A stretch of DNA of 64,000 bases from Gammaproteobacteria bacterium (GTDB taxonomy: Bacteria; Pseudomonadota; Gammaproteobacteria; CBDBNL01; JAAOII01): positions 1,725,353 through 1,789,352 of the forward strand of contig OZ244039.1 of NCBI GenBank assembly GCA_965215225.1, given 5' to 3'. This document shows, in pieces, positions 5,153 through 58,064 of this stretch. Both the position numbers and the translations under genes were made by a program. The notes under the pieces are model-generated. The model had not been told where the DNA came from and made no database searches. It saw only the letters and a list, made by a program, of their open reading frames with translations. Each line of letters opens with the position of its first letter. The first letter of the stretch is position 1.

Positions 5153-5175
5153 GGGGATATTATAGCAACAAAAGA

Positions 5176-34224: not shown

Positions 34225-35214
34225 CTAAGGAATGAGGATAGTAGATGCGGTAGTCTTTCTCGCTGCCAGATCCTTATGTGCCCTGGCAACCTGGGCAAGA
34301 GGATATTCTTGATGAATAGATATTTCCAGTCCGGCGCGGCAAGCAGCAAAAAGACGGGCAGCGCTCTCGCGCCTTTCGCCCTCACTAGCAGCATAGTGCA
34401 TAAGGCTCGGGCGAGTCAAGAAGAGCGAACCCTTTTCCGCCAATAGACTTGGGGCAACCGGAGGCACTGGCCCTGAAGCATTGCCATAGGAAACCATCAT
34501 ACCGCGCGGCCTTAAGGCATCTAAGGACGACATAAATGTATCCTTGCCAATAGAATCATAAACCACATCCACTCCTTTTCCTTTGGTCAATTCTCTGACT
34601 TGCTTTGCCAGGTCCCCTTCACCGTGAATGATTACCTCATCACAACCATAGCTCCTAGCCAATTCAGCCTTTTCCTTTGTGCTAGCAGTTCCTATCACAA
34701 AGACCCCCAGTTGCTTTAACCATTGTAGCGCGATTAGACCCACCCCGCCAGCTATGGCGTGAAAGAGAACCAGATGGTCTCGCTTCACTCGAAAGGTTCG
34801 GTGGATAAGATATTCTGCTGTCATTCCCTTAAGCATCATAGCCGCCGCCTGCTTAGTGCTGATATGAGTTGGCAAGAGAATCAACTGCCCACTAGCTATA
34901 TGCCTCCTCTGACTATAAGAGCCTAGTGATGTGCAATAGGCTACCCTATCGCCTATATGAAAATCCCGAACCCTCTTGCCTACCTCCTCTACTATTCCAG
35001 CAGCCTCCATCCCCAAAACAGCCGGTAAATTAAGCGGATAAAGGCCGGTGCGATGATAGATGTCAATGAAATTAATTCCGACTGCCTCATGTCTGACGAC
35101 AACTTCTTCTTCTCCTAGCTCAGCAGCTAAGGGCGCATATTCCCACCTCAAGCAAGACTCATCGCCAGTCTGATAAAGGAAAATCGCCTTGTTCGATTTG
35201 TTCGCCTTGTTCAT
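34225..35214 (-). CDS. qor: NADPH:quinone oxidoreductase (zinc-type ADH/MDR superfamily)
   Basis: 329 aa with a GroES-like N-domain (VVVRHEAVGINFIDIY) and a Rossmann fold (LFHAIAGGVGLIALQWLKQLG). Confidence 0.8.
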   Translation of the reverse strand: MNKANKSNKAIFLYQTGDESCLRWEYAPLAAELGEEEVVVRHEAVGINFIDIYHRTGLYPLNLPAVLGMEAAGIVEEVGKRVRDFHIGDRVAYCTSLGSYSQRRHIASGQLILLPTHISTKQAAAMMLKGMTAEYLIHRTFRVKRDHLVLFHAIAGGVGLIALQWLKQLGVFVIGTASTKEKAELARSYGCDEVIIHGEGDLAKQVRELTKGKGVDVVYDSIGKDTFMSSLDALRPRGMMVSYGNASGPVPPVAPSLLAEKGSLFLTRPSLMHYAASEGERRESAARLFAACRAGLEISIHQEYPLAQVARAHKDLAARKTTASTILIP

Positions 35215-35575
35215 TTAATCTTAGCGGGTGAAGATGACCAAATGAAATTAACTACCTCTTCCACCGCCTCATGTCTGACGACAACCTCCTCTTCCTTTAG
35301 CTCAGCTGCTAAGGACGCATATTCCCACCTCAAGCAGGACTCATCGCCGGTCTGATGAAGAAAAATTGCCCTATTCATATTGTTCATCTAATCTTATCAG
35401 ATTGTTTGTTTAATCTTATCGGAGAAAGAAAGACCAAGTGTCTTCAACACTCCAACCAGTTCATCTAAAAAGTCAATGAAATTAACTACCACCTTCCACC
35501 GCCTCATGCCTAACACAAACTTCTTCCTCCCCCAGCTCAGCCAAAGGCGCGTCTTCCCATTGCATACAAGACTCA

Positions 35576-36244
35576 TCACCCGACCCCTGAGTAGACTTCC
35601 CACAGCGGGACGAGCCCAACGAGCAACGACCTGGTCCGGTCGAGGAAGGCCGGGGCGTCCGCCGCGACCTCGGCCGGTTCGCAGGTCCGCAGCGCACAGA
35701 GGTGCGGCCCCTCGAGGAAGCTCTCCGCTTTCGTCGCGTCGAGTTGGCGATCGATCTCGCCATACTTCTTGCAGGCGATCAAATCCGTCGAGGCGCCGAG
35801 CCCGACCTCCCGGCCGAGCGTCACGACGCGCGCGGCGTCGCGTCGAAGTGCCGCCGCCATCGGAGCGTCTTCGCTCAGCAGCGGGGGCGGTACATAGAGT
35901 CCGGCCCAGACCCCATCGGGCTGCAATCCGACGAAGAGCTGCGCGTCTTCCTTCTTCCGGCCTTCCCGGTAGAAGAGCGCCAGCATGTTGTTCTTGTAGG
36001 GGCTCTGCCCTCTTGCAAACCGCATGTCCCGATTGATCCGGGTGATGGTCCTGTTGACGTTCGGCCGGATCTCGCAATCGGGAATGTGCTCGCGCAGGGC
36101 CGGCCCGATATCGCCGACAGCGCTGCGCAAGGGACCAAGCAGGTTGCTCTCGTAGCGATCGCGGTTCGCCTCGAACCACGCTTTGTCGCGATGCGCGTTC
36201 AGATCGTCGAGAAAACGGAACGTCTCCGCCGAAAAATACTTCAT
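35576..36244 (-). CDS. DUF2461 (TIGR02453) family protein, on a high-GC horizontally acquired island
   Basis: 222 aa. The N-terminus FSAETFRFLDDLNAHRDKAWFEANRDRYE matches the DUF2461 signature (F.FL..L..NN...WF..N...Y). The local GC is about 66% against about 42% in the flanks. Confidence 0.7.
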   Translation of the reverse strand: MKYFSAETFRFLDDLNAHRDKAWFEANRDRYESNLLGPLRSAVGDIGPALREHIPDCEIRPNVNRTITRINRDMRFARGQSPYKNNMLALFYREGRKKEDAQLFVGLQPDGVWAGLYVPPPLLSEDAPMAAALRRDAARVVTLGREVGLGASTDLIACKKYGEIDRQLDATKAESFLEGPHLCALRTCEPAEVAADAPAFLDRTRSLLVGLVPLWEVYSGVG

Positions 36245-36387
36245 AGTGTCACCTCTTCCTTCGCCTTGTATTTGACGATAACTTCTTCTTCCCCCAACTC
36301 AGCCAAAGTCTCCTCCTTTTCCTCCCACTTCAAGCAAGTCTCATCGCCGGTCTGATAAAGGAAAATCGCCTTGTTCATCTTGTTCAT
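36241..36387 (-). CDS. 48-aa leader ORF derived from the qor N-terminus, translationally coupled to the DUF2461 gene (ATGA overlap)
   Basis: Minus-strand translation gives MNKMNKAIFLYQTGDETCLKWEEKEETLAELGEEEVIVKYKAKEEVTL-stop. Its TGA overlaps the ATG of the DUF2461 gene (ctATGAag). Confidence 0.4.
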   Translation of the reverse strand: MNKMNKAIFLYQTGDETCLKWEEKEETLAELGEEEVIVKYKAKEEVTL

Positions 36388-36849
36388 TTAATCTTATCAA
36401 GTTGTTTGTTTAATTTTATCGGAGAAAGAAAGGCCCAGTGTCTTCAACACTCCATCCAATTCATCCAAATAATCAATGAAATTAACTACCATCTTCCTTC
36501 GCCTCATGTTTGACGATAACTTCTTCTTCCCCCAGCTCAGCCAAAGGCTCCTCCCTCTCCTCCTCCCACTTCAAGCAGGACTCATCGCCGGTCTGATAAA
36601 GGAAAATCGCCTTATTCATATTGTTCATCTAATCTTATCAGGTTGTTTGTTTAATTTTATCGGAGAAAGAAAGACCCAGCGTCTTCAACACTCCATCCAA
36701 TTCTTCTTCTCCTAGCTCAGCAGCTAAGGGCGTATCCTCCCACTTCAAGCAAGTCTCATCGCCGGTCTGATGAAGGAAAACCGCCTTGTTCGATTTGTTC
36801 GCCTTGTTCGCCTTCGCCTTATTCACCTTATTCACCTTATTCATCCTGC

Positions 36850-37722
36850 TCATTTAATCTTATCGGGGGAAGAAAGACCCAGTGTCTTCAACACTCCATC
36901 CAGTTCATCTAAGGAGTTGTAATGAACTACCATCTTTCCTTTACCACTATGGGTATATTGAAACTTAACCTGCACCCCCAATTTGTCGCTAATATCTTCT
37001 TGAAGTGACAGAATATTGACATCCATTTGCCGCCGTTTGCGCGGCCCCTTATGAAAGCGAATAACCAGCTTCTCTGTTTGACGGACGGTTAGTCTCTTGT
37101 TAACAACTTCCTCAGCAGCCCTTATTTGTTCCTTGTCCTCAAGCCCCAATAGCACCTTAGCATGTCCTAGTTCCAATTTGCCAGCCTTAACCATTTCTCC
37201 TACTGGGTCTTCCAACCTTAACAAGCGAATAATATTTGCCACAGCCACGCGCGACATACCTACCATGTCCGCCAGCTGTTTCTGAGTATAGTTGTAATTA
37301 GAGCGTAAGGATTCAAAGGCTTCTGCTTGTTCATAAGCATTAAGGTCATCGCGCTGAACATTCTCAACCAGCGCCAGAACAGCAAGCGACCTGTCATCTA
37401 CTTCACGCACTACCGCAGGCATATGACTTAGACCCACCATTTTTGCCGCCCGCCACCTTCTTTCACCAGCAATCAGCTCATACTCACTTGCTGTCTCCTG
37501 CTTAGGGCGAACTACTATGGGTTGAAGGACTCCCTGTGTCTGAATAGAAGAAGCCAGTTCTCTTAATGAATCGGTTCTAAAGTCATTGCGAGGCTGATAA
37601 GGATTAGGATGAATCTCATTAAGGGAAAGCTCAATAAGACTCTTGTCTTCTACCTTCTCTACATTAATGTCTTCTAAGAGAGCAGACAGATCCTTTCCTA
37701 AGGCTTTTCTTTTCTTTGCCAT
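36850..37722 (-). CDS. parB: chromosome partitioning protein ParB
   Basis: ParB-box residues LIAGERRWRAAKMVGL are present, with an HTH, and parA lies upstream. Confidence 0.9.
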   Translation of the reverse strand: MAKKRKALGKDLSALLEDINVEKVEDKSLIELSLNEIHPNPYQPRNDFRTDSLRELASSIQTQGVLQPIVVRPKQETASEYELIAGERRWRAAKMVGLSHMPAVVREVDDRSLAVLALVENVQRDDLNAYEQAEAFESLRSNYNYTQKQLADMVGMSRVAVANIIRLLRLEDPVGEMVKAGKLELGHAKVLLGLEDKEQIRAAEEVVNKRLTVRQTEKLVIRFHKGPRKRRQMDVNILSLQEDISDKLGVQVKFQYTHSGKGKMVVHYNSLDELDGVLKTLGLSSPDKIK

Positions 37723-42656: not shown

Positions 42657-44972
42657 CTAGGGAAACAGCTCGTCTAAACGGGTCTGATTTAGTTCGGGTT
42701 GTCCAGTGCTATTCAAATACCACCAGCTACGCCATTCGGCAGGAGCTATGGGAGTGCATTCAATAGCGGGATACTCATCCGACTCACCAAAATCCCAGAT
42801 AAGATTGGCATCGATGTCTTCACCAGTTTCAATGCTCCCACTATTATCCCTATCACACCAAACAGCTAATGGTTCGTCAATCATACTACCATCGTCAAAC
42901 ACAACTGGGTTCTCGTCCCATTTGACATAAATCCCTGTATAGGGAGTTGGCATCTGAAGTTGACTACTAGTCTTGGCTTCACCATGGTTGCCATCAGCAT
43001 GAGTGACGCCAGTAGCATTGTACCAATAGGAATTAACTCCAGCCCCACTTCCTTCCCCAACCAGCATACGAGTAATACTGCCTGAGACCACATAAGAATA
43101 AGCAACCTTGCTAGAAGAGTCAAATCTTCCCGCCAGACCACCTATCGGATTCAGCCCGCTCAACTCATCCACCACAACCGATGAAGAATAAATCTGAGCC
43201 GATGGACCCCACCCCACCAGACCGCCTATATAAAGACCATTAATCCCACTCACTTCACCCGCCACAACCGAAGATGAAAAAACACGAGCTGAAGCACCAA
43301 ACCCCACCAGACCGCCTATAACATTACCAACCCCTCCCACCGCACCTGCCACAACCGATGAAGAATGAATCAGGCTCCCTTCACCATTCCCTACCAGACC
43401 GCCTATATTACCAGCACCCCCAAACACCATACCCATCACAACCGATGAAGAATAAATCCGAGCGGATTGACCATGGCCCACCAGACCACCCACATTTTGA
43501 GCCCCGGACGTCTCACCCACCACAACTGAAGAAGAATAAATCCGAACGGATTGACCATGGCCCACCAGACTACCTATATGGCTGCCAATACCTCTCACCC
43601 TATCCACCACAACCGAAGCAGAATGAATCCGAGCCGATTCACCATCCCCTACCAAACCGCCTACCCTAATCCTACCTATCACTGCCTCGGCACTAAGAGT
43701 CAAATTACGAATCTCTGAATTATCAGCTATATGGCCAAACAAACCCACACAATCCTCACCTGAACGACTGATATTCAAATCACTAATCATAAAACCATTG
43801 CCTTCAAAGGTCCCACTAAAAGCAGTTCCTTGACATCCGGGACCACTAGCTGTATCATGACCCAAGGGTTGCCAGCCTTTGCCGCCATCGTCATCCGCAT
43901 AGTCCGCAAGACTTATATTCGCAACCAGCTCATAACCAGAACAAGAAGTGATGCCGTCGGCACCACCACAGCCAGTTTGGTCAAGGTTGCCACCCGCCAT
44001 GGAACGATAGCCGCTGCCATCCAGTTGATGACGGACCGCATTTAATTCCTCATGTGTTCTTATCTCTATCAACCCATCCCCATCATCATCTACATCCTCC
44101 ACCGCATCCTCACAACCATCGCCATCTTTGTCGTTGTCAGAGGTAGAGACAAAATTTGAATTTTGACTGGTAGGACATTGGTCTGAATCATCTCTTATAC
44201 CGTCATTATCGTCATCATCACTGGGACCACCTGTTCCCGGATCGCCATTCCCAGGATCAGGCGGGGGCTCCGGCTCCCCAGCTAACTTCTCATCTAAAAA
44301 GTCCGCTATGCCATTGCCATCTCCATCCTCCCCTATGGCTATCCGCCCACGAACCGAACCACCTGTCGTATCATTATAGTCCGCTAAATTCCTCTCTACC
44401 GGCCGCCACGCTATTCCCCTATCACCAACCCGAGCACCATCCGCCAGTGTCTCTTCATAGGAAAAAGTAAATTCATATTCCCTCCCCGACACAAGACCCC
44501 CAAAAATATAACCCGATATCAAATCCTCCAACGAAAGACCTGGACTCATCTCCTGTCCAGTAAGCTTCCCTTCCGCATCATAAGACCTGGCATTAATACG
44601 GACCGCCGTTATGTTCCTACCAGCATAGGCCGCCCCATTTGTCAAAGTAATACTAACCCCGCCATCAAAAGGACTGAACGCTAATACAAAGGGGTCGTCT
44701 TCCGAACTGTCACTCCCCGAACCACCGCCTGAACCTCCACCGCCGCCGCCAGCACAAGCAGTAAAAACAACTGATAAGAAACCCGCCGCAACTAAGAAGA
44801 AGAGAAACCGTCCCAGCCGACTAAGCGGAATCAAGGGGGTATGATCTAGGCACAAGGCCAGATAAGAGAAGTAGAAGCGGAACCTAGCCGCTCCGAATAA
44901 TAAAAATTGGGTTGCTTTTGCCAATTTTACATTTGCCATAATAATTCTTTTTGTCATTTTCATCTTCACCAT
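42657..44972 (-). CDS. surface lipoprotein with thrombospondin type-3 Ca-binding repeats and GLUG repeats (paralog 1, 771 aa)
   Basis: Lipobox (FLSVVFTAC), a poly-Gly/Ser linker, Asp-rich TSP3-like repeats (DDDDNDGIRDDSDQCP...DNDKDGDGCEDAVEDVDDDGDGL), about 10 GLUG units (GGLVG.G.SARI.SSSVV) and a conserved C-terminal domain (AVWCD.DNSGSIE...IWDFGESDEYPAI.CTP.AP..WR.WW). Confidence 0.75.
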   Translation of the reverse strand: MVKMKMTKRIIMANVKLAKATQFLLFGAARFRFYFSYLALCLDHTPLIPLSRLGRFLFFLVAAGFLSVVFTACAGGGGGGSGGGSGSDSSEDDPFVLAFSPFDGGVSITLTNGAAYAGRNITAVRINARSYDAEGKLTGQEMSPGLSLEDLISGYIFGGLVSGREYEFTFSYEETLADGARVGDRGIAWRPVERNLADYNDTTGGSVRGRIAIGEDGDGNGIADFLDEKLAGEPEPPPDPGNGDPGTGGPSDDDDNDGIRDDSDQCPTSQNSNFVSTSDNDKDGDGCEDAVEDVDDDGDGLIEIRTHEELNAVRHQLDGSGYRSMAGGNLDQTGCGGADGITSCSGYELVANISLADYADDDGGKGWQPLGHDTASGPGCQGTAFSGTFEGNGFMISDLNISRSGEDCVGLFGHIADNSEIRNLTLSAEAVIGRIRVGGLVGDGESARIHSASVVVDRVRGIGSHIGSLVGHGQSVRIYSSSVVVGETSGAQNVGGLVGHGQSARIYSSSVVMGMVFGGAGNIGGLVGNGEGSLIHSSSVVAGAVGGVGNVIGGLVGFGASARVFSSSVVAGEVSGINGLYIGGLVGWGPSAQIYSSSVVVDELSGLNPIGGLAGRFDSSSKVAYSYVVSGSITRMLVGEGSGAGVNSYWYNATGVTHADGNHGEAKTSSQLQMPTPYTGIYVKWDENPVVFDDGSMIDEPLAVWCDRDNSGSIETGEDIDANLIWDFGESDEYPAIECTPIAPAEWRSWWYLNSTGQPELNQTRLDELFP

Positions 44973-45334: not shown

Positions 45335-46990
45335 TGAGAAGGGAAGAAAAGAAGCAGATTAGCCAAAGGGGGCTAGTTGGAGTGGGCCTGTCCTAGCTGT
45401 TTGGGTTGAGGCTAGGGAAGCAGATTAACCAAAGGGGCTAGTTGGAGTGGGACTGTCCTAGCCGTTTCGGTTGAGGCTAGGGAAGCAGATTAGCCAAAGG
45501 GGGTTAGTTGGAGTGGGCCTGTCCTAGCTGTTTGGGTTGAGGCTAGGGAAGTAAATTAGCCAAAGGGGGCTGGTTGGAATGGGTCTGTCCTAGCCTTTTG
45601 GGTTGAGGCTAGGGAAGTAAATTAGCCAAAGGGGGCTGGTTGGAATGGGTCTGTCCTAGCTGTTTGGGTTGCAGCTAGGGAAGCAAATTAGCCAAAGGGG
45701 GCTAGTTGGAGTGGGTTTGTCCTAGCTGTTTGGGTTGAGGCTAGGGAAGCAAATTAGCCAAAGGGAGCTAGTTGGAGTGGGACTGTCCTAGCCGTTTCGG
45801 TTGAGGCTAGGGAAGTAAATTAGCCAAAGGGGGCTGGTTGGAGTGGGTCTGTCCTAGCCTTTTGGGTTGAGGCTAGGGAAGTAAATTAGCCAAAGGGGGC
45901 TGGTTGGAATGGGTCTGTCCTAGCCTTTTGGGTTGAGGCTAGGGAAGTAAATTAGCCAAAGGGGGCTGGTTGGAATGGGTCTGTCCTAGCTGTTTGGGTT
46001 GAGGCTAGGGAAGCAGATTAGCCAAAGGGGGCTAGTTGGAGTGGGCCTGTCCTAGCCGTTTCGGTTGAGGCTAGGGAAGCAAATTAACCAAAGGGGGCTA
46101 GTTGGAGTGGGACTGTCCTAGCCGTTTCGGTTGAGGCTAGGGAAGCAGATTAACCAAAGGGGGCTAGTTGGAGTGGGACTGTCCTAGCTGTTTGGGTTGA
46201 GGCTAGGGAAGCAAATTAGCCAAAGGAAGCTAGTTGGAGTGGGACTGTCCTAGCTGTTTGGGTTGCAGCTAGGGAAGCAGATTAACCAAAGGGGGCTAGT
46301 TGGAGTGGGCCTGTCCTAGCTGTTTGGGTTGAGGCTAGGAAAGCAAATTAGCCAAAGGGGGCTAGTTGGAGTGGGTCTGTCCTAGCCGTTTGGGTTGAGG
46401 CTAGGAAAGCAGATTAACCAAAGGGGGTTAGTTGGAGTGGGCCTGTCCTGGCCGTTTCGGTTGAGGCTAGGGAAGCAGATTAGCCAAAGGGGTCTAGTTG
46501 GAGTGGGTCTGTCCTAGCTGTTTGGGTTGAGGCTAGGGAAGTAAATTAGCCAAAGGGGGCTAGTTGGAGTGGGACTGTCCTAGCTGTTTGGGTTGAGGCT
46601 AGGGAAGCAAATTAGCCAAAGGGGGCTAGTTGGAGTGGGCCTGTCCTAGCTGTTTGAGTTGAGGCTAGGGAAGCAGATTAGCCAAAGGGGGCTAGTTGGA
46701 GTGGGCCTGTCCTAGCTGTTTGAGTTGAGGCTAGGGAAGCAAATTAACCAAAGGGGGCTAGTTGGAGTGGGCCTGTCCTAGCTGTTTGGGTTGCAGCTAG
46801 GGAAGCAAATTAGCCAAAGGGGGTTAGTTGGAGTGGGTCTGTCCTAGCCGTTTCGGTTGAGGCTAGGGAAGCAAATTAACCAAAGGGGGCTAGTTGGAGT
46901 GGGTCTGTCCTAGCTGTTTGGGTTGAAGCTAGGGAAGCAGACTAGCCAAACGGGTTTATTTGGAGTGCCCCTGTCCTAGCCGTTTCGGTT
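45335..46990. repeat. 66-bp tandem repeat array (about 25 units; consensus GGCTAGGGAAGCAGATTAGCCAAAGGGGGCTAGTTGGAGTGGGCCTGTCCTAGCTGTTTGGGTTGA)
   Basis: Visible periodicity. Each unit has inverted elements gctaggg/cctagc and derives from the 3'-terminal coding sequence of the adjacent GLUG gene. Confidence 0.9.
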
Positions 46991-46994
46991 GGAG

Positions 46995-48929
46995 CTATTG
47001 AAGCAGATCGTCCAAACGAGCCCGGTCTAGTTCGGGTTTGCCACTCGCATTCAAAGACCACCAATCACGCCAATCGTCAGGAGCTAGCGGAGTGCAGCGA
47101 ATGGCGGGATATTGACTTGAAGTGCCGAAGTTCCAGATGAGATTGCCAGGGGTTTGTTCATCTGACTCTATGCTCCCACTGTTATCTTCATCACACCAGA
47201 CCGCCAATGGCACGTTCCCATCACCAAACAGATCTGTGTTATCGTCCCAAGTGGCATAAATATCTGTATAGTTAGTTGGACTGCGGAGATCGCTAGTGGT
47301 CTTGGCTTCACCATGATTGCCATTAGTGACGCCACTAGTATCACTGTCCCAATAGGAAGCAACTCCAGTCCCACTTCCTTGCCCAACCAGCGGCATAGTA
47401 GCACTGCCTGAGACCATGTAAGAATAAGCAACCCGACCAGCAGCAAAATCTCCCACCAGACCACCCGTAGGAATACCCCCTCTCACCTCACCCACCACAA
47501 CCGAAGAAGAATGAATTCGAGCACCTAGACCAGCCCCCACCAGACCACCTGTACTACTCTGTCCACTCACCTGAGCCGCTATAGCCGAAGAAGAAAAAAT
47601 GCTAGCATTTTGACCAAATCCTACCAGTCCGCCTGAATAAATACCAGCTACATCTGACGCTCTCACCTCAGCTGCCACAACCGAAGAAGAATAAATTCGA
47701 GCATTTGAACCATCCCCCACCAGACCACCTATAGTACTACTCCCGCTCACCTCAGCTGCCACCACCGAAGAAGAAACAATCCGAGCCGAGTTACCATCCC
47801 CCACCAGACCACCTACCCCAAACTTACCTATCACTGCCTCGGCACGAAGAATCAAATTGCGAATGGTTGCACCAGGGGCAAGATGCCCAAATAAACCCAC
47901 ACAATCTTCACCTGAACGACTAATGCTCAAATTGCTAATCATAAAACCATTGCCTTCAAAGGTCCCACTAAAAGCAGTTCCTTGACATCCTCTGGCAACT
48001 CTATCTGTATCTTGACCCAAGGGCTGCCAGCCTTTGCCGCTATCATAATCCACATAGTCTGCCAGACTTATATTATCAACCAGCTCATAACCAGAACAAG
48101 AAGTGATGCCGCCGGTACCACCACAGCCAGTGGTGTCGGCCGCCCCAGTATCCAATAGCTTGCGCCCGCTACCATCCAGTTGATGACGCACCGCATTTAA
48201 TTCCTCATGTGTTCTTATCTCTATCAACCCATCCCCATCATCATCTACATCAACATCATCTAGATAGGCATCATTATCATCATTATCATCTACACTATCC
48301 GCTCGCCTATCTCCATCCGTATCCAGCCCCGACCGAATACCGTCCCCGGCGTGATCATCATGATTCTCAGGCCAAACAAAAACTATATTCACCTCCTGCT
48401 CCCTGCTATCGCTAAGAATCCCAGTAATCTGAAACTTCCAATCTCGGTCAGCTAGCCCAGTAAAATCATAGCTGTCATTAGCAAATTCGTCTATGTTGAT
48501 ACTTCTCTCTACAACCTCGCTTCCACTAGTTGCCGTAATCTTCAAAGAAGTGAAACTGCTAAAGTCCGATTGGCTGCCTATTTGAAACCCACCCCTTATA
48601 GGAGCAAAAGTGAGACTCGCGTTAAAAACTCCCAGAACCATCGCGCCGTTTCCTGGACCATTGCCATCCATCGAACTATTGTTTACCGGACCACCATCAC
48701 CCGAACTGCCACCACCCCCGCCGCCAGCACAAGCAGTAAGAACAACTGATAAGAAACCAGCCGCAACTAAGAAGAAGAGGAACCGTCCCAGCCTACTAAG
48801 CAGAGTCAGGGGGGCATGATAAGAGAAATAGAAGCAGAACCTAGCCGCTCCGAATAATAAGAATTGGGTTGCTTTTGCCATTTTTATATTTGCCATAATA
48901 GTTCCTTTTACCATTTTTACATTCTCCAT
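46995..48929 (-). CDS. surface lipoprotein with TSP3-like and GLUG repeats (paralog 2, 644 aa)
   Basis: Same N-terminal region, lipobox LTAC and conserved C-terminal domain as paralog 1, with a different central region. It has Asp-rich DDNDDNDAYLDDVDVDDDGDGL and GLUG units. Confidence 0.75.
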   Translation of the reverse strand: MENVKMVKGTIMANIKMAKATQFLLFGAARFCFYFSYHAPLTLLSRLGRFLFFLVAAGFLSVVLTACAGGGGGGSSGDGGPVNNSSMDGNGPGNGAMVLGVFNASLTFAPIRGGFQIGSQSDFSSFTSLKITATSGSEVVERSINIDEFANDSYDFTGLADRDWKFQITGILSDSREQEVNIVFVWPENHDDHAGDGIRSGLDTDGDRRADSVDDNDDNDAYLDDVDVDDDGDGLIEIRTHEELNAVRHQLDGSGRKLLDTGAADTTGCGGTGGITSCSGYELVDNISLADYVDYDSGKGWQPLGQDTDRVARGCQGTAFSGTFEGNGFMISNLSISRSGEDCVGLFGHLAPGATIRNLILRAEAVIGKFGVGGLVGDGNSARIVSSSVVAAEVSGSSTIGGLVGDGSNARIYSSSVVAAEVRASDVAGIYSGGLVGFGQNASIFSSSAIAAQVSGQSSTGGLVGAGLGARIHSSSVVVGEVRGGIPTGGLVGDFAAGRVAYSYMVSGSATMPLVGQGSGTGVASYWDSDTSGVTNGNHGEAKTTSDLRSPTNYTDIYATWDDNTDLFGDGNVPLAVWCDEDNSGSIESDEQTPGNLIWNFGTSSQYPAIRCTPLAPDDWRDWWSLNASGKPELDRARLDDLLQ

Positions 48930-49319: not shown

Positions 49320-50900
49320 AAAAGAAGCAGATTAGCCAAAGGGGGCTAGTTGGAGTGGGTCTGTCCTAGCTGTTTGGGTTGAAGCTAGGGAAGCAAATTA
49401 GCCAAAGGGGGCTAGTTGGAGTGGGCCTGTCCTAGCTGTTTGGGTTGAGGCTAGGGAAGCAGATTAACCAAAGGGGCTAGTTGGAGTGGGACTGTCCTAG
49501 CCGTTTCGGTTGAGGCTAGGGAAGCAGATTAGCCAAAGGGGGTTAGTTGGAGTGGGTCTGTCCTAGCTGTTTGGGTTGCAGCTAGGGAAGCAGATTAACC
49601 AAAGGGGGCTAGTTGAAGTGGGCATGTCCTAGCTGTTTGGGTTGAAGCTAGGGAAGCAAATTAACCAAAGGGGGCTAGTTGGAGTGGGTCTGTCCTAGCC
49701 TTTTGGGTTGAGGCTAGGGAAGTAAATTAGCCAAAGGGGGCTAGTTGGAGTGGGTCTGTCCTAGCTGTTTGGGTTGCAGCTAGGGAAGCAAATTAGCCAA
49801 AGGGGGCTAGTTGGAGTGGGTCTGTCCTAGCTGTTTGGGTTGCAGCTAGGGAAGCAGATTAGCCAAAGGGGGCTGGTTGGAGTGGGTCTGTCCTAGCCGT
49901 TTGGGTTGCAGCTAGGGAAGCAAATTAGCCAAAGGGAGCTAGTTGGGGTGGGGCTGTCCTAGCTGTTTGGGTTGCAGCTAGGGAAGCAAATTAGCCAAAG
50001 GGGGCTAGTTGGAGTGGGCCTGTCCTAGCTGTTTGGGTTGAGGCTAGGGAAGCAAATTAGCCAAAGGGGGCTAGTTGAAGTGGGCATGTCCTAGCTGTTT
50101 GGGTTGAAGCTAGGGAAGCAAATTAACCAAAGGGGGCTAGTTGGAGTGGGCCTGTCCTAGCTGTTTCGGTTGAAGTTGAGGGTCTCAGCCAAAGCAAGTT
50201 GTCAGTTTGAGAAGGGAAGAAAAGAAGCAGACTAGCCAAAGGGGGCTAGTTGGAGTGGGTCTGTCCTAGCTGTTTGGGTTGCAGCTAGGGAAGCAAATTA
50301 GCCAAAGGGGGCTAGTTGGAGTGGGACTGTCCTAGCCGTTTCGGTTGAGGCTAGGGAAGCAGATTAGCCAAAGGGGGCTAGTTGGAGTGGGTCTGTCCTA
50401 GCTGTTTGGGTTGAAGCTAGGGAAGCAAATTAGCCAAAGGGGGCTAGTTGGAGTGGGTCTGTCCTAGCTGTTTGGGTTGCAGCTAGGGAAGTAAATTAAC
50501 CAAAGGGGGTTAGTTGGAGTGGGCCTGTCCTAGGTGTTTAGGTTGAGGCTAGGGAAGCGAATTAGCCAAAGGGAGCTAGTTGGAGTGAGTCTGTCCTAGC
50601 TGTTTGGGTTGAGGCTAGGGAAGCAAATTAACCAAAGGGGGTTAGTTGGAGTGGGCCTGTCCTAGCTGTTTGGGTTGAAGTTGAGGGTCTAAGTCGAAGC
50701 AAGTTGTCAGTTTGAGAAGGGAAGAAAAGAAGCAGACTAGCCAAAGGGGGCTAGTTGGAGTGGGTCTGTCCTAGCTGTTTCGGTTGAAGTTGAGGGTCTA
50801 AGCCAAAGCAAGTTGTCAGTTTGAGAAGGGAAGAAAAGAAGCAGACTAGCCAAATGGGGCTAGTTGGAGTGGGTCTGTCCTAGCCGTTTGGGTTGAGGCT
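49320..50900. repeat. 66-bp tandem repeat array, second copy (about 24 units in 3-4 sub-arrays)
   Basis: Same unit as 45335-46990. Sub-array boundaries are marked by gttgtcagtttgagaagggaagaaaagaagcag. Confidence 0.9.
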
Positions 50901-53061
50901 AGGGAAGTAGATTGTCTAAACGGTCCCAGTTTAATCTGGGTTTGGCAGGCGTCCCCTCCAAAGACCACCAGTCACGCCAGTCTTCGGGATCTAGCGGAGT
51001 GCAGCGAATGGCGGGATATTCATCCGACTCGCCGAAATCCCAGATGAGATTGTCATTGGTTCGTTCATCTGATTCTATACTCCCACTATTATCCTTATCA
51101 CACCAGACCGCCAGTGGCTCATCACTCATCCCATCGTTAAATATATTTATGTCATCGTCCCACTCTTCATAAATCCCTGTATAGTCAGTTGGCTCGCGAA
51201 GATCATTGCTGGTCTTGGCTTCACCATAATTGCCATTAGTGACGCCACTAGTCTCACTGTCCCAATAAGAAGCAACTCCAGTCCCACTTCCTCTCCCAAC
51301 CAGCATAGAAGTCATACTGCCTGAGACCACATAAGAATAAGCAACCTGGCTAAAGGTCAATGCTCCCACCAAACCGCCTAGATCAATACTCCCTTCTAGC
51401 TCACCCACCACAACCGAAGAAGAAACAATCTGAGTACCACTACCAGATCCTATCAGACCGCCTAGCTGACCAGTTCCTCTCACCTCGCCTGCCACAACTG
51501 AAGAAGAAGCAATCCGAGCCGATGTACCATCCCCTACCAAACCCCCTATAGACTGACCCCCTCTCAGACTACCCAGCACAACCGAAGAAGAAGCAATCCA
51601 AACTGATGTACCAGACCCTACCAGACCGCCTATACTAAGTTTAAAATTATCAATCTCGCTCACCACCCCAGCTGCCACAACCGAAGAAGAAGCAATCCGA
51701 GCCGATGAACCCAACCCCACCAAACCCCCTACAGCATTATCCCCTTTCACCTCACCCACCATAACCGAAGAAGAAACAATCCGAGATCCTGAACCATCCC
51801 CCACCAGAGTGCCTACTCTATTCCTAGCTGTCACTGCCTCGGCACTAAGAGTCAGATTGCGAATCTCTGAACTCGCGGTTATATGACCAAACAGACCTAC
51901 ACAATCCTCATCTGAACGACTAATATTCAAATCACTAATCGTCCAGCCATTGCCTTCAAAAATCCCATCAAAAGCATCTCCTTGACATCCAATGGTGCCA
52001 CTAGCTGTGTCATGACCCAAGGGTTGCCAGCCTTTGCCTCCATCAGCGCTCATATAGGTTGCAAGACTGATATTTGCAACCAGCTCATAGCCAGAACAAG
52101 AAGCAGTAGTGCCATTGCCACAGCCAGTGGAGTCGAGCGCCTCGCTCGCCGTTAGCTTCCTCCCTACGCCATTCAAAGCATAACGCACCGCATCCAGCTG
52201 CGCCGCTGTGGCTATCTCTATCAACCCATCGCCATCATCATCTATGTCCGTTCCATCCATCGAATTGTCATTATCGCAATCGTTATCCTGGACACATTCA
52301 GCTGCTGCCTCATCTCCATCGCGGACATGATCATCATCGCAATCGGCTTTCATTACACAGGCTGCCGCTACTTCATCCCCATCGCGGACATGATCATCGT
52401 CGCAATCGGCTTTTATCACACAGGCTGCCGCTACTTCATCCCCATCGCGGACATGATCATCGTCGCAATCGGCTTTTATCACACAGGCTGCCGCTACTTC
52501 ATCTATATCCATGACACTATCCCCATCGCAATCCACCAACAGCGAACATCTCACCTCATCTGAATTAGTCTGTCGCTCTCTCTCATCAACATCATCCAAC
52601 CCATCATTATCATCATCCTCATCACAAACATCGCCCTCACCATCCTTATCTGTATTAGTCTGGTCGGGATTTGCAACAAGCGGACAATTATCCATAGCAT
52701 TCTCCATGCCATCATTATCATCATCACTGGAAGCATCGCTTCCCGAACCATTGTCGCCCGAACCATTGTCGCCCGGACCACTGTCTCCCGAACCATCGGT
52801 CATCGAACCATTGCCTATTAAACCGATGCTGCTTGAACTGCCGCCAGCACAAGCAGTGAGAACAGCTGATAAGAAACCAGCCGCAACTAAGAAGAAGAGG
52901 AACCGTCCCAGCCTACTAAGCAGAGTCAGGGGGGCATGATCTAGGCTCGGGGCTAGATAAGGGGCCAGATAAGAAAAATAGCAGCGAAACCTAGCCGCCC
53001 CGAATAAAAATCGATTTACATCTGTCATATTTACATTTGTCATAATAATTCCCTCCCGCAT
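50899..53061 (-). CDS. surface lipoprotein with TSP3-like and GLUG repeats (paralog 3, 720 aa)
   Basis: Canonical TSP3 repeats (DDDNDGMENAMDNCPLVANPDQTNTDKDGEGDVCDEDDDNDGLDD), a 20-aa x3 internal repeat (CVIKADCDDDHVRDGDEVAAA), GLUG units and the conserved C-terminal domain. Confidence 0.75.
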   Translation of the reverse strand: MREGIIMTNVNMTDVNRFLFGAARFRCYFSYLAPYLAPSLDHAPLTLLSRLGRFLFFLVAAGFLSAVLTACAGGSSSSIGLIGNGSMTDGSGDSGPGDNGSGDNGSGSDASSDDDNDGMENAMDNCPLVANPDQTNTDKDGEGDVCDEDDDNDGLDDVDERERQTNSDEVRCSLLVDCDGDSVMDIDEVAAACVIKADCDDDHVRDGDEVAAACVIKADCDDDHVRDGDEVAAACVMKADCDDDHVRDGDEAAAECVQDNDCDNDNSMDGTDIDDDGDGLIEIATAAQLDAVRYALNGVGRKLTASEALDSTGCGNGTTASCSGYELVANISLATYMSADGGKGWQPLGHDTASGTIGCQGDAFDGIFEGNGWTISDLNISRSDEDCVGLFGHITASSEIRNLTLSAEAVTARNRVGTLVGDGSGSRIVSSSVMVGEVKGDNAVGGLVGLGSSARIASSSVVAAGVVSEIDNFKLSIGGLVGSGTSVWIASSSVVLGSLRGGQSIGGLVGDGTSARIASSSVVAGEVRGTGQLGGLIGSGSGTQIVSSSVVVGELEGSIDLGGLVGALTFSQVAYSYVVSGSMTSMLVGRGSGTGVASYWDSETSGVTNGNYGEAKTSNDLREPTDYTGIYEEWDDDINIFNDGMSDEPLAVWCDKDNSGSIESDERTNDNLIWDFGESDEYPAIRCTPLDPEDWRDWWSLEGTPAKPRLNWDRLDNLLP

Positions 53062-53270
53062 TCAAAGAAGAACAAGTCCCTCTTGACTACAAAATAGGGA
53101 CAAAAACAACAAAAATGCGACTTAGATGCCCCCAATCAACACTCAATTCCAACCTCTAAAAACGCCTTTATTAGTTAGAATAGACTAATTAAGGGCTTCA
53201 AAGAAAATTAGTATTAGTAGCCTTTAAAGACCTATTGACTTCATAAAATAGAAAGCAATGATAAGAAATA

Positions 53271-54173
53271 ATGATGAGTGAAAAGAATCAAACCATTCAA
53301 GGAAGCATGGTTGCTTTGGTAACTCCCATGCTAGCCGAAAGTCATGAGATTGATTGGCAAACCTTAGAACAACTAATAGACTGGCATATCGAACAGGGAA
53401 CTGATGCCATCATCGCGGTGGGGACTACTGGCGAGTCTTCTACCCTAAGCCATAGGGAACACATAGCAATAGTAGCAAAGATAGTCAAGCAAGCAGATGG
53501 CAAGATACCCATCATCGCTGGGACAGGTTCGAACTCTACCCGTGAAGCCATCGACCTGACCAAAGCCGCCGAACAAGCAGGGGCAGACGCTGCCCTCTTG
53601 ATGGTGCCCTATTACAACAAGCCGCCCCAGCAGGGACTCATAAGGCATTTTCTCGCGATTGCTGATGCGGTTGATATGCGGCAGATTATCTATAATGTTC
53701 CAAGTCGCACCATTACCGACATACTACCAGAAACTCTGGCGGAGACAAGCCATCATCCCAATATTATCGGCATCAAGGAAGCTACTGGCGATATTAGCCG
53801 CGTAGAAAAAATACATCGGTTATGTGGGGAAGGTTTCCTCATCTATTCGGGAGATGACGCCAGTTGTGTAGAACTAATGCTTGCTGGTGGCAAAGGATGT
53901 ATTTCGGTAACTGCCAATGTTGTCCCAGCACTGATGCACCAACTATGTCAATTAGCCATTGAAGGAGAAGCAGACAAGGCAAGGCAGTTGAACGAAACCC
54001 TGAGTGCGCTGCACTCGGTTCTCTTTGTTGAGTCAAATCCCATCCCAGTCAAATATGCCCTCTATCTATGTAAGAGAATACAAAACGCCATTCGCTTGCC
54101 CCTGTTGCCGCTATTGTCCAGTCATCATCCACAACTCAAAGCAATATTAAAAGAACTCTCTTTACTTCATTAA
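53271..54173 (+). CDS. dapA: 4-hydroxy-tetrahydrodipicolinate synthase
   Basis: VALVTPM...GTDAIIAVGTTGESSTLSHREH...YNVPSRT... matches the DapA motifs, and a Lys occurs at the expected catalytic position (IKEATGD). Confidence 0.9.
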   Translation: MMSEKNQTIQGSMVALVTPMLAESHEIDWQTLEQLIDWHIEQGTDAIIAVGTTGESSTLSHREHIAIVAKIVKQADGKIPIIAGTGSNSTREAIDLTKAAEQAGADAALLMVPYYNKPPQQGLIRHFLAIADAVDMRQIIYNVPSRTITDILPETLAETSHHPNIIGIKEATGDISRVEKIHRLCGEGFLIYSGDDASCVELMLAGGKGCISVTANVVPALMHQLCQLAIEGEADKARQLNETLSALHSVLFVESNPIPVKYALYLCKRIQNAIRLPLLPLLSSHHPQLKAILKELSLLH

Positions 54174-54739: not shown

Positions 54740-55447
54740 ATGAAGCAGCAAGAGCACCTCTATTCTGGTAAGGCAAAGAGTCTCTTTAAGACTAATGACC
54801 CTAATCGGCTCATCATGCAATTTCGCGACCAGCTAACTGCCTTTGATGGCAAGAAAAAATCTGACTGTGCTGGCAAGGGAATCTATAACAACAAGATTAA
54901 CGCCCATCTGATGTCCCACCTTCAAAATAAGAAGATCAGAGTTCATTTCATTGAGAAGCTAGACGACCGAAGATCCCTAGTCCATAGCTTGTCAATGATT
55001 AAATTAGAGTTCATTTTGCGTAATCGGGCAGCTGGCAGCATTTGTTCCCGACTGGGCTTGCCCAAAGGACAGAATTTCTCTCAACCTGTTTTTGAGATCT
55101 GTCTGAAGAGCGATGAGCTGGGCGACCCTCTGATTAATGACTCTCATATTGAGCTGCTCGACTACTCGTTGCAACTGGTTGATGATGCAAGAAAAATAGC
55201 ACTCAGCATCAATAGCCATTTGATTAAATTGTTTGATAAAGCAGGAATAGAACTAGTCGACCTGAAGCTTGAGTTTGGTCTAGACCATAAGAAGCAGCTG
55301 TGTCTTGGCGATGAAATATCACCAGATAGCTGTCGCCTGTGGGATAAGAATTCCCACACTCCTCTTGATAAGGATCTATTCCGCTTTGATTTGGGAGACC
55401 TGCTTGATGGCTATAAACTGGTTGCCGAAAGACTAGGCATTGCCTAA
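54740..55447 (+). CDS. purC: phosphoribosylaminoimidazole-succinocarboxamide synthase
   Basis: 235 aa with an N-terminus LYSGKAKSLF.T.DP...M.FRD..TAFDG.KK typical of PurC (SAICAR synthetase). Confidence 0.85.
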   Translation: MKQQEHLYSGKAKSLFKTNDPNRLIMQFRDQLTAFDGKKKSDCAGKGIYNNKINAHLMSHLQNKKIRVHFIEKLDDRRSLVHSLSMIKLEFILRNRAAGSICSRLGLPKGQNFSQPVFEICLKSDELGDPLINDSHIELLDYSLQLVDDARKIALSINSHLIKLFDKAGIELVDLKLEFGLDHKKQLCLGDEISPDSCRLWDKNSHTPLDKDLFRFDLGDLLDGYKLVAERLGIA

Positions 55448-56521
55448 GAGCCGCCGAACAAAACTTCTATCAAGATAGTTTTTCCAATACCACACCCAAT
55501 AGCCAGTAAAAGAGAAGCTGCCCCTTTGCCCTAAGGCAGCCTTGTTTCCTAAGGATAGTAGGGTGAGGAATTCCTGCTGAGGATGATAAGAGTTCAATTC
55601 CTTTTCCGCTGCCATGGCCAAGAGGTTATGGCCAAGACAGGGAGCCTGCCGAACGGCAAAGACCCCTGCTTTTGGTAAATTATGTCCTGTCAGACTAGCT
55701 ATATCCCCAGCCGCAAAAATATTAGGATGAGAAAGAGATTGTAAGCGGTCATTTACCTTGACAAAACCGTCTTCATCAAGCTGTAAAGGGCTCTCTTTAA
55801 GCCAATGAGGAGGAACCCCATTGGTTGCCCAAAAGACATAGTCTGCCGCCACTCTGGTCTCAGTAGAATCAGCCGACCGAATCAGCAGACTCTTATCTTG
55901 CCATGCCATGACCCAGCTTTGTTCTCTCAGTTGAACATTTGCATCGCTCAACTTTTGTCTAGCCAGCTTGACTAGTCGCTCAGCATAACCGGGCAATAGG
56001 TTATCGGCTGTAATTAAGCTCAGCTGGCAGTCTTTGCGCCGCCAAGCAAGTGCCAGGGCAACCTCCAGGCTAGCCGCCCCACCGCCCACTACAGCAAGAT
56101 GCATCCGACCTTTATGCTCAAGTAGGGATTCCCACTTTGAGATAAATTCAGTGACCGGTTTGAGTGGCAAGGAATCTTCTGTTTGGGTATTGGCAGGCAA
56201 GGAAGAAGACACACCCAGATTAAGCGAGGCAATATCAAAACCCAGCGCCCCCCTATCCGTGATAATGGAATCATCATTAATAGCCTCGACCCTAGCAAGG
56301 AAAAACTCAACCCCGACTTTCTGACAGAGTCGCGGCAGGCTGATACTGATGTCTTCTATCCCATAGTGACCGGCGATGAAGCCAGGTAGCATGCCAGTAT
56401 AAAGCAGCGCCTGGGATTCGCTAACCAGAGTAATATGGTGAGCACAGGGTTTGAGAGCTCTTAATACCAGTGCATGGGTATGGCCGCCGCCAAGAAGGAC
56501 TATCTTTTTCTTTGTCATCAA
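55433..56521 (-). CDS. FAD-dependent pyridine nucleotide-disulfide oxidoreductase family protein (SQR/NDH-2-like)
   Basis: An N-terminal dinucleotide-binding fingerprint KKIVLLGGGHTHALVL and a second motif HLAVVGGGAASLEVALAL, 362 aa. Confidence 0.5.
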   Translation of the reverse strand: MMTKKKIVLLGGGHTHALVLRALKPCAHHITLVSESQALLYTGMLPGFIAGHYGIEDISISLPRLCQKVGVEFFLARVEAINDDSIITDRGALGFDIASLNLGVSSSLPANTQTEDSLPLKPVTEFISKWESLLEHKGRMHLAVVGGGAASLEVALALAWRRKDCQLSLITADNLLPGYAERLVKLARQKLSDANVQLREQSWVMAWQDKSLLIRSADSTETRVAADYVFWATNGVPPHWLKESPLQLDEDGFVKVNDRLQSLSHPNIFAAGDIASLTGHNLPKAGVFAVRQAPCLGHNLLAMAAEKELNSYHPQQEFLTLLSLGNKAALGQRGSFSFTGYWVWYWKNYLDRSFVRRLLGNA

Positions 56522-57055
56522 TAGGCTATTTAATCCGCAAATGATAATATCATATGGCTAAAAATTATTAAACTTAGCATTTAATTATGACAAGAAAATG
56601 GCAAGGATCTGCAATACCAGTGCATGGTTATGGCCGCCGCCAAGAAGGACTATCTTTTTCTTTATCATCAATAGGCTATTTAATCCGCAAATGATAATAT
56701 CATATGGCTAAAAATTATTAAACTTAGCATTTAATTATGACAAGAAAATGGCAAGGATCTGCAATACCAGTGCATGGGTATGACCGCCGCCAAGAAGGAC
56801 TATCTTTTTCTTTGTCATCAACAGGCTATTTAATCCGCAAATGATAATATCATATGGCTAAAAATTATTAAACTTAGCATTTAATTATGACAAGAAAATG
56901 GCAAGGATCTGCAATACCAGTGCATGGGTATGGCCGCCGCCAAGAAGGACTATCTTTTTCTTTATCATCAATAGGCTATTTAATCCGCAAATGATAATAT
57001 CATATGGCTAAAAATTATTAAACTTAGCATTTAATTATGACAAGAAAATGGCAAG
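56455..57055. repeat. 150-bp tandem repeat x4 spanning the divergent promoter region and the first codons of both flanking genes
   Basis: The unit ...caataccagtgcatgggtatggccgccgccaagaaggactatctttttctttgtcatcaataggctatttaatccgcaaatgataatatcatatggctaaaaattattaaacttagcatttaattatgacaagaaaatggcaaggatctg recurs at 56461, 56611, 56761 and 56911. Confidence 0.9.
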
Positions 57056-58064
57056 GATCTGCGCTTTAATCACTGGCGGCACCATTGGGATGATAACCAG
57101 AGGCAACTCCAGTCTTATGCCAGCCCAGCCTCTAGACTATAGCAGGTTCTTCCCCCATCTTGCTGAGCTGGCTGAAATAGACTATCATCTGGTCTTCTAT
57201 TTAGACAGCAGTGCAGTCGGCGCGCCTCAATGGCGCGAGCTAGCGACGGCTATAGAGAAACGGCTGGATAAATATGATGGCTTTGTGGTCTGTCATGGGA
57301 CGGATACCATGGCATACTCGGCTTCTGCCTTGGCCTATGCCTTTGGCAGCTGTCTTAATCATCCTATAGTTTTTACTGGCTCCCAGCGAACGCCTGATTC
57401 GCCAGCTAGTGATGCCCAAGCCAACCTAGTTGCTTCTATCAAGTTGGCTTCGAGCCAGCTAGCGGAAGTGGCTATAGCCTTTGACAAGCTAGCCTGGCGA
57501 GCCTGCCGCACCATTAAGGTATCTAACTCTCAAGACGCTGCCTTCGTCTCCCCCAAGACACCACCTCTAGCCCGGCTGGATACAAGATGCACCTTGACTT
57601 TAACCCCAACGGCTAGAAGACAATCTCCCCAGCAAAAGACTGGCAAGCCAATCAGCGATTTCAGCAATCGCTTAGCCTTCTTCTATGCCGTCCCTTCTCA
57701 TGAACCAACCAGTTTAATTCAGCAGGCGAAGAGCGCCAGCTGGCAAGTAGGATTAGTAGTGGGTTTAGGCAATGGTAATCTTCCCCCGCGATTTCTGTCC
57801 TTCATTCGAGCAGCAAAAGAACATCATAAGCAGATCATCATCGCCTCAGCAAATTGTGACCCATCTCCCACTTCCTATCCACCATTAAGAGAAGCACTAG
57901 AACAGGGCGCTATCTATGCTGGCGGCTATAGCCTGCCGGGCCTATGGACGAAACTTTGCTGGCTGATACCCCAAAGTGAAAAGCTCAAAAACAACCAACA
58001 AGAAGCCTTCTTCAAAGCGGCATTGGCAAAATCCTATGTAGGAGAATTAGAAATAGAACCTTAA
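57048..58064 (+). CDS. L-asparaginase (type I, AnsA-like)
   Basis: The LITGGTIGM threonine motif and the HGTDTMAYSASAL signature are collinear with E. coli AnsA, at 338 aa. Confidence 0.75.
   Translation: MARICALITGGTIGMITRGNSSLMPAQPLDYSRFFPHLAELAEIDYHLVFYLDSSAVGAPQWRELATAIEKRLDKYDGFVVCHGTDTMAYSASALAYAFGSCLNHPIVFTGSQRTPDSPASDAQANLVASIKLASSQLAEVAIAFDKLAWRACRTIKVSNSQDAAFVSPKTPPLARLDTRCTLTLTPTARRQSPQQKTGKPISDFSNRLAFFYAVPSHEPTSLIQQAKSASWQVGLVVGLGNGNLPPRFLSFIRAAKEHHKQIIIASANCDPSPTSYPPLREALEQGAIYAGGYSLPGLWTKLCWLIPQSEKLKNNQQEAFFKAALAKSYVGELEIEP

Follow-up and report, generated by a model that had tools for sequence, protein, structure and literature searches.

A Four-Copy Tandem Array of a Putative Divergent Promoter Region That Includes the Starts of Both Flanking Genes

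An oxidoreductase gene and an asparaginase-like gene, transcribed divergently, are separated by four head-to-tail copies of a 150-bp unit, each of which contains the beginnings of both genes and all of the DNA that lies between them. The array was found in a 64-kb stretch of DNA from an uncultured gammaproteobacterium, all of which was analysed and is referred to here as the window. It is apparently a young, species-specific tandem amplification, from one copy to four, of a native divergent-promoter cassette, since the conspecific strains have the array and more distant lineages have a single copy. In kind, it is an ordinary tandem duplication in a genome very rich in repeats, and can be classed as a minisatellite of a promoter region or as a tandem promoter duplication. 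The full explanation that we favor, to which we give a probability of about 0.6, is that native sequence was amplified recently, that each unit acts as a bidirectional promoter, and that each of the two genes now has four promoters.

Structure of the Array

Tandem Repeats Finder (TRF) reported only one array at this locus, with a period of 150 bp, 4.0 copies, 98% matches, 0% indels and a score of 1165, and a second repeat search of the window returned an identical register (Table 1). Head-to-tail units of tens to hundreds of bp are the hallmark of minisatellites, or VNTRs, and 4.0 units of 150 bp fall within this range. A 50-nt piece of the unit occurs four times in the 64-kb window, compared to zero times in 100 shuffles. 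The unit was not found anywhere else in the window, and in this respect does not behave as a member of a dispersed repeat family such as the MIRUs.

Positions 1–56 of the unit are the head of the minus-strand oxidoreductase gene (MTKKKIVLLGGGHTHALV, reverse complement, as read from the sequence), which encodes the GGGHTH dinucleotide-binding motif and amounts to 18 complete codons and 2 nt. Positions 57–135 are the entire AT-rich intergenic region of 79 nt, 19 of which are G or C. The remaining 15 nt, positions 136–150, are ATGGCAAGGATCTGC (MARIC), the ATG and four further codons of the asparaginase-like gene. Any two copies in the window differ from each other at 1–4 positions.

The original prediction for this locus, a 150-bp tandem quadruplication of a divergent promoter region, is confirmed by these results, as is its description of a unit that takes in the whole AT-rich intergenic region and the asparaginase-like ATG plus four codons. 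It had located the correct array, although the coordinates that it gave, 56455–57055, are shifted by 7–8 nt, and its figure of about 12 oxidoreductase codons per unit was too low. As it had proposed, both promoters and both start sites are present four times at the sequence level, in that the hexamers, both ATGs and the stub ORFs described below occur in each unit.

Table 1. Positions of the array, its copies, the promoter-like and palindromic sites, the stub ORFs and the flanking genes in the window
Feature	Position	Strand	Remarks
Whole tandem array, 4.0 x 150 bp	56463..57062		TRF and repeat search; array also in L081 and L084
Copy 1	56463..56612		Provides the real start of the oxidoreductase gene; equals the consensus and is identical across the three strains
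Copy 2	56613..56762		Window variants T16 and A52
Copy 3	56763..56912		Window variants A21 and C60
Copy 4	56913..57062		Window variant A52; provides the real start of the asparaginase-like gene
13-bp perfect palindrome ATGATAATATCAT	56541..56553; again at +150, +300 and +450 (56691, 56841, 56991)		
Promoter-like TTGTCA-18-AATAAT (10/12)	56564..56593; 56714-56743, 56864-56893, 57014-57043	-	Consensus match only
Promoter-like TTAATA-16-TATTAT with upstream TG	56544..56571, in each copy	-	Consensus match only
Stub ORF from copy 2, 27 aa, M(T/I)KKKIVLLGGGH(T/N)HALVLQILAIFLS	56585..56668	-	
Equivalent 27-aa stub ORFs	56735-56818, 56885-56968	-	
Stub ORF from the copy-1 asparaginase start, 37 aa, MARICNTSAW...	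56598..56711; equivalent 56898-57011	+	
FAD-dependent pyridine nucleotide-disulfide oxidoreductase gene, 361 aa, TIGR03169 'Nterm_to_SelD' family	55433..56518	-	First 56 nt inside copy 1
Asparaginase-like gene, 338 aa	57048..58064	+	First 15 nt inside copy 4

The Flanking Genes

The product of the minus-strand gene is, judging from its family matches, a FAD-dependent pyridine nucleotide-disulfide oxidoreductase. The name follows from a match to Pfam PF07992 (Pyr_redox_2) and from a score of 338.3 bits against NCBIfam TIGR03169, which passes the cut-off of 310. The plus-strand product contains an asparaginase N-terminal domain (Pfam PF00710, 160.7 bits against a cut-off of 22.5). However, it scores only 145.9 bits against the type I asparaginase model TIGR00519, below the NCBIfam cut-off of 260.5, and is for that reason referred to as asparaginase-like.

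Two observations support 57048 as the start of the asparaginase-like gene: its N-terminus, MARICALITGGTIGM, agrees with that of homologues, and the motif ICxLxTGGTIGM is conserved in relatives. In the public assemblies of the two conspecific strains described below, the gene callers put the start at an internal ATG (MITRGN...), which drops the conserved TGGTIGM motif from the protein. Exact protein look-up found the oxidoreductase, but returned no record for the full-length asparaginase-like protein, PurC or the 37-aa stub ORF. For the asparaginase-like protein, the absence of an exact record is due to the internal ATG annotated as its start in both strains. In practical terms, the array locus is accompanied by a mis-called asparaginase-like start in both conspecific assemblies.

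The Array in Conspecific Strains

Two conspecific contigs were recovered through a search with the oxidoreductase and exact look-ups, which, together with the window, makes three strains. L081 (ENA ERZ25070786, ctg147362l, 48.7 kb) and L084 (ENA ERZ25070776, contig_12, 1.81 Mb) both contain the array as 4.0 units of 150 bp, with the same boundaries as in the window. The strains are 1.5–2% apart overall. Over about 7 kb, there are 165 differences between L084 and the window, and both L081 and L084 differ from the window by 1.5% inside the array and by 0.4–4.5% in the neighbouring genes. The 12 copies (four in each of three strains) vary at nine positions of the unit (16, 21, 27, 33, 52, 60, 102, 144 and 147), and the pattern of copy-specific variants is private to each strain.

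These data bear directly on whether an assembler might have wrongly expanded a single-copy region, the scenario by which the original prediction would have fallen. Apart from the general risk that is attached to repeats, nothing speaks for such an expansion. Three assemblies of three distinct strains agree on the number and boundaries of the copies, and each copy has its own SNPs, which differ among the strains, making an artefact very unlikely. The contigs also follow two naming styles, which, by our own reading of the names, suggests different assemblers, and metagenome contigs of 1.8–2.3 Mb presumably reflect long reads capable of spanning 600 bp. An assembly artefact can thus be given next to no credence, and it is close to certain that native sequence has really been amplified.

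The same comparison of strains, which the original prediction had called for, does not support its suggestion of a hotspot for copy-number variation, as all three strains have 4.0 copies. An internal control is provided by a 66-bp array located 3.3 kb away, between dapA and the gene for a 720-aa TSP3-repeat protein, whose copy number ranges from about 0.6 in the window through 1.6 in L084 to 7.6 in L081. The variability in copy number that is typical of VNTRs was not seen among the window, L081 and L084, which are three strains only, and the 150-bp array is probably fixed rather than hypervariable.

A phase-variable contingency locus, in which units would often be gained and lost within populations and expression of both genes thereby switched or tuned, is hard to reconcile with the data and is considered highly improbable. 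The repeat is placed in a promoter region, and there is a precedent in the VNTR upstream of Mycobacterium tuberculosis lpdA, the copy number of which is linked to expression according to PMC9213004. The shared variants A52 and A21 occupy different copies in different strains, which suggests exchange between copies, but could be explained equally well by recurrent G-to-A changes. However, contingency loci are characterized by a hypermutable tract and by length switching, and no change in length was found among the three strains, while the nearby 66-bp array varies eight-fold or more in the same strains. At 150 bp, the unit is also far longer than typical simple-sequence contingency repeats, and there are merely four copies of it.

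Single-Copy Relatives and the Origin of the Array

Five more distant lineages, represented by six contigs, were examined: L082, L083, L099, L100/L101 and L102, in which the oxidoreductase is 85%, 71%, 56%, 53% and 49% identical, respectively, to that of the window. The gene order is the same in all five, with dapA, a lipoprotein gene, purC and the oxidoreductase gene on one side and the divergent asparaginase gene, SBP and recJ on the other, and in all five the intergenic region is a single copy of 23–96 nt without a repeat. When the array in the window is collapsed to one unit, the locus aligns collinearly with L082 and L083, with nothing inserted, showing that the unit is purely native sequence. 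The identity between the window and L082 is 89.9% in the intergenic region and 84–85% in the adjacent coding sequence. No match to the unit was found in plasmid or phage collections, and an origin from a mobile element was rejected on the basis of this result and the collinearity with the single-copy relatives.

The junction between units (…ATCTGC|AATACC…) has no terminal microhomology with the flanks: the base preceding the array is T, versus a C at the end of the unit, and the base following the array is G, versus an A at the start of the unit. A TTAAT motif is present near both breakpoints, but is 5 nt out of register, and junction microhomology was therefore also rejected. The founding duplication was presumably an illegitimate (non-homologous) event, and later expansion and exchange between copies would have made use of the 150-bp homology.

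Within a strain, the copies (paralogues) are 1.3–2.0% divergent, while orthologous copies in different strains are 1.0–1.5% divergent. This similarity points to an amplification that would date from about the time of the strain radiation, after the lineage of L082 had split off. The finding of A52 and A21 in different copies in different strains may be due either to copies exchanging sequence or to repeated G-to-A mutation. There is a weak period-300 signal in the window (99% versus 98%), where A52 is found in copies 2 and 4, as might be expected from a two-step doubling (1 to 2 to 4). Neither L081 nor L084, however, shows this pattern.

The search for additional relatives covered two collections. 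With the asparaginase-like protein as the query, GTDB-representative contigs gave distant matches only, with a best-segment identity of at most 43%, from which it follows that the species is not among the GTDB representatives. In metagenome contigs, a degenerate 34-nt intergenic pattern had no matches, and the oxidoreductase protein retrieved only relatives with at most 43% identity and no further strains.

Promoter-Like Sites, Palindrome and Stub ORFs

Each unit contains a 13-bp perfect palindrome (Table 1). It has eight matches in the 64-kb window, versus 0.16 expected, all of them within the array. The palindrome is unchanged in all 12 copies of the three strains and is conserved in L082. 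It is partly conserved in L083 and has no recognisable form in L099–L102. It holds GATAAT on the plus strand (56543–56548) and TATTAT on the minus strand (56549–56544, in the context TGnTATTAT), offset by 1 bp. Overlapping −10 hexamers on opposite strands, with pairing between positions 2 and 6, are the defining feature of the 18-bp class of symmetric bidirectional promoters, as set out in the literature cited below, and this is the geometry found here.

On the minus strand, a consensus scan yielded two promoter-like matches per unit. On the plus strand, no −35 match passed the scan, and there are −10 or extended −10 candidates only, picked by eye. No terminator-like sites were predicted between 56300 and 57200. 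The copies thus follow each other without a predicted terminator, as in a tandem promoter duplication. At the sequence level, the array appears to match the definitions of both a tandem promoter duplication and a symmetric bidirectional promoter.

A structured RNA, such as a riboswitch or sRNA, was also considered as a function for the unit. Rfam gave no match in the array at E ≤ 1, and the RNA folds of the unit and of its intergenic part were no more stable than those of shuffles, with z-scores that were all positive (+0.06 to +1.47), and this candidate was rejected.

Through the repetition of the gene heads, the array contains short ORFs that begin at the duplicated start codons. The three internal minus-strand stub ORFs are all intact at 27 aa. 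Among the plus-strand stubs, that starting at 56748 is shortened to 11 aa by A21, which creates a TGA. The stubs have acquired both nonsynonymous changes and a stop codon, which gives no indication of a conserved function for the peptides.

Predicted Effect on Expression

In the proposed mechanism, each unit would be a self-contained bidirectional promoter centred on the palindromic −10 region. Each gene would then be preceded by four promoters in the same direction, spaced 150 bp apart, with no predicted terminator between them. Transcription that begins in a distal copy would continue into the real gene, giving leaders of 150–450 nt that carry the 27-aa or 11–37-aa stub ORFs. Neighbouring copies would at the same time constitute convergent promoter pairs, three of them within the array, which may lead to head-on interference between polymerases. 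Because neighbouring bidirectional units form such pairs, the output is expected to be changed, but by less than the sum of the promoters.

On this evidence, it is plausible that each gene has four promoters in tandem and that convergent pairs are formed within the array. The original prediction had considered that expression may be amplified or altered; that the array would have a measurable effect on the expression of at least one of the genes is somewhat better than an even bet, while the net direction and size of such an effect are beyond sequence-based prediction.

Selection, Neutrality and Other Explanations

Copy 1 equals the consensus in all three strains, as expected of a functional gene head. 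Variable positions are found at 2 of 79 intergenic positions and 7 of 71 positions in the stub parts of the unit, a difference that is not significant (Fisher p = 0.085). Moreover, six of the seven substitutions in the stub parts fall on a G or C, so that base composition confounds the comparison (p = 0.077 when restricted to G/C sites). On both grounds, the extra promoter copies were not taken to be under constraint. Between the window and L084, the asparaginase-like gene has 23 synonymous and 18 nonsynonymous codons, an unusually high nonsynonymous share, compared to 21 and 3 in dapA, 12 and 1 in purC, and 5 and 0 in the oxidoreductase gene. In L081, the asparaginase-like gene has a 1-nt deletion at an A-run (at about 57,815 in window coordinates) that causes a frameshift and a truncated product, which may be a sequencing error. 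The nonsynonymous excess and the L081 frameshift do not suggest strong selection on expression of the asparaginase-like gene, and it is unlikely that the array as such is maintained by selection. A more specific proposal is that selection keeps exactly four units as a promoter multiplier, which would raise and couple the expression of both genes, while the convergent pairs would add interference that shapes noise or mutual dependence. This version is rather improbable.

It is possible, although the odds are clearly below even, that the array is real but a neutral by-product, one more tandem duplication in a repeat-prone genome, with internal promoters that are silent or leaders that are terminated or degraded, and that it persists only through its youth and the rarity of recombination between 150-bp units. 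The window gave 42 TRF rows, compared to one array in 13 kb of the sister species L082, and in a genome so densely populated by tandem arrays, a neutral origin would call for no special explanation. The divergence of the paralogues, being about that between strains, requires no long persistence, the promoter part lacks a significant excess of conservation, and the stub ORFs have acquired nonsynonymous changes and a stop codon. On the other hand, the other arrays in the window consist of dispersed, satellite-type units. No promoter-like sites were found in the 66-bp satellites, which makes them a different kind of repeat, and while the 66-bp array 3.3 kb away went from 0.6 to 7.6 copies, the 150-bp array stayed constant at four in the same strains. 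The palindrome and the promoter-like hexamers are also intact in every extra copy. The intact palindrome might alternatively mean that the selected feature is a set of four regulator sites, acting through cooperative repression, looping or titration, rather than the promoters. As noted above, the palindrome is perfect, invariant in 12 of 12 copies and conserved in L082. However, it is found nowhere else in the 64 kb, so that no regulon is visible, and it decays from L083 to L099–L102. Compared by eye, its spacing departs from that of the Fur 7-1-7, FNR and Zur boxes, and a −10 region of this type would be expected to look palindrome-like anyway. Such an operator array would be a most improbable explanation.

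Comparison with Known Systems

Among known systems, the array comes closest to minisatellites in promoter regions, for example VNTR3690, located upstream of lpdA (Rv3303c) in M. tuberculosis. The copy number and promoter sequence of this repeat are linked to lpdA expression according to PMC9213004, which refers to Akhtar 2009, Perez-Lago 2013 and Zheng 2008. Both are tandem minisatellites, and in both cases the promoter region concerned belongs to a flavoprotein pyridine-nucleotide oxidoreductase. The MIRU-VNTR loci, including VNTR3690, are polymorphic between strains and belong to dispersed families, whereas the 150-bp array is made from a unique local unit and has four copies in all three strains. 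Unlike the VNTR3690/MIRU-VNTR units, the 150-bp unit includes the start codons of both genes.

In the commonest class of symmetric bidirectional promoters, positions 2 and 6 of the −10 elements pair and the divergent starts are 18 bp apart, according to Warman et al. (bioRxiv 10.1101/2020.01.31.928960); a later study (NAR 2026, PMC12825309) also deals with such promoters. The array resembles the promoters of these accounts in its overlapping −10 elements on opposite strands, in the 2/6 pairing, in its location between divergent genes and in a predicted start spacing of about 18 bp. It differs from them in being a four-fold head-to-tail array, which is not among the arrangements covered in the cited parts of the two studies, and the likeness here is one of sequence geometry only.

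In E. coli, the outputs of tandem promoters more than 35 bp apart add up, apart from losses that arise when the downstream promoter is occupied or RNAPs collide (PMC8830795, PMC11339919). Like these native and synthetic tandem promoters, each gene here has several promoter-like sites in the same direction that are more than 35 bp apart. Unlike them, the sites are identical amplified copies that appear to be bidirectional, with three predicted convergent pairs and with leaders that would carry stub ORFs. A further likeness is found in the TR34 and TR46 alleles of Aspergillus fumigatus cyp51A, in which duplication of a promoter segment is a mutational route to altered expression. These differ from the array in that they occur in a eukaryote, duplicate transcription-factor sites only, are clearly selected (for azole resistance) and include no gene heads.

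Implications

If selection does keep the four units as a promoter multiplier, the array would be the natural equivalent of the tandem-repeat promoters that have been built synthetically. We know of no description of such a regulatory architecture, a natural multiplier made from bidirectional units, for bacteria. More generally, if the internal copies fire, the locus would constitute a clean natural experiment on the multiplication of a bidirectional promoter in its native place, for which the single-copy sister species would serve as built-in controls.

Tandem repeats

The 66-bp unit CTGAGGTTGAAATTGAGTGTTGATTGGGGGTATCTAAGGCAAAGACCCTTAACTTACTTTTAGCGG forms an intergenic array between a gene of 720 aa and dapA, and its copy number differs among the three strains compared, from about 0.6 in the window to 1.6 in L084 (a conspecific contig, ERZ25070776 contig_12) and 7.6 in L081 (a second conspecific contig, ERZ25070786). 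This array is a true variable-number tandem repeat (VNTR).

Two large satellites in the window are built from a different 66-bp unit and occupy the intergenic space upstream of large repetitive genes with a surface-protein-like character. Satellite 1 contains about 25 copies of its unit, while satellite 2 consists of about 13 + 7 copies together with a 109-bp variant. The unit of these satellites includes the hairpin TAGCCCCCTTTGGCTA; no sigma-70-like sites were found in it.

Other long arrays have units of 7 to 101 bp (see the table). The 18–24 kb region of the window is low in G+C (0.37) and contains three ORFs of similar size (367–371 aa). In the sister species L082, tandem repeats are almost absent from the 13 kb examined.

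Repeats and associated genes (strand in brackets where assigned)
Feature	Window	L081	L084
13 bp x 99 array	8014-9287		
7 bp x 38 array (GAGGGAT)	17877-18145		
7 bp x 36 array (GATGAAA)	22358-22613		
Nested 78/89/101-bp arrays	24048-24862		
241-bp x 1.9 direct repeat, downstream of ParB-like gene	within 35200-36860		
G+C-rich ORF, 222 aa	35576-36244		
ParB-like gene (-)	36850-37722		
Large repetitive surface-protein-like genes, downstream of satellites	42657-44972, 46995-48929		
66-bp satellite 1	45351-47005		
66-bp satellite 2	49324-50896		
720-aa gene	50899-53061		
66-bp CTGAGGTTGAAATTGAGTGTTGATTGGGGGTATCTAAGGCAAAGACCCTTAACTTACTTTTAGCGG array	53100-53170	9361-9860	about 6390-6460
dapA	53271-54173		
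purC (+)/oxidoreductase (-) overlap	55433-55447		
Asparaginase-like gene (public calls in L081, L084)	57048-58064	4632-5429	1455-2429

The ParB-like gene

The C-terminal tail of the ParB-like protein (...LDGVLKTLGLSFSDKIKQT) recurs in small ORFs within the interval that holds the 241-bp direct repeat, and these ORFs flank the G+C-rich ORF. The interval looks like an insertion with duplicated gene-end sequence at its borders.

dapA, purC and the asparaginase-like gene

Besides the full-length DapA, the 1.81 Mb source contig of L084 encodes another DapA-like product, a partial one of 134 aa (P0247). The convergent purC and oxidoreductase genes overlap by 15 nt at their 3' ends, an arrangement also found in L081, L082 and L084.

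In the public gene calls of L081 and L084, the asparaginase-like gene starts at an internal ATG (MITRGN...), 14 codons past the conserved start, and the TGGTIGM motif is thereby lost from the protein; it is because of this internal start that the full-length protein has no exact database match. Near window position 57815, an A-run of the L081 gene carries a 1-nt deletion, cutting the product to 279 aa; this deletion is either a homopolymer error or a genuine frameshift. Within the species the gene evolves fast: the window and L084 versions differ at 18 nonsynonymous and 23 synonymous codons.
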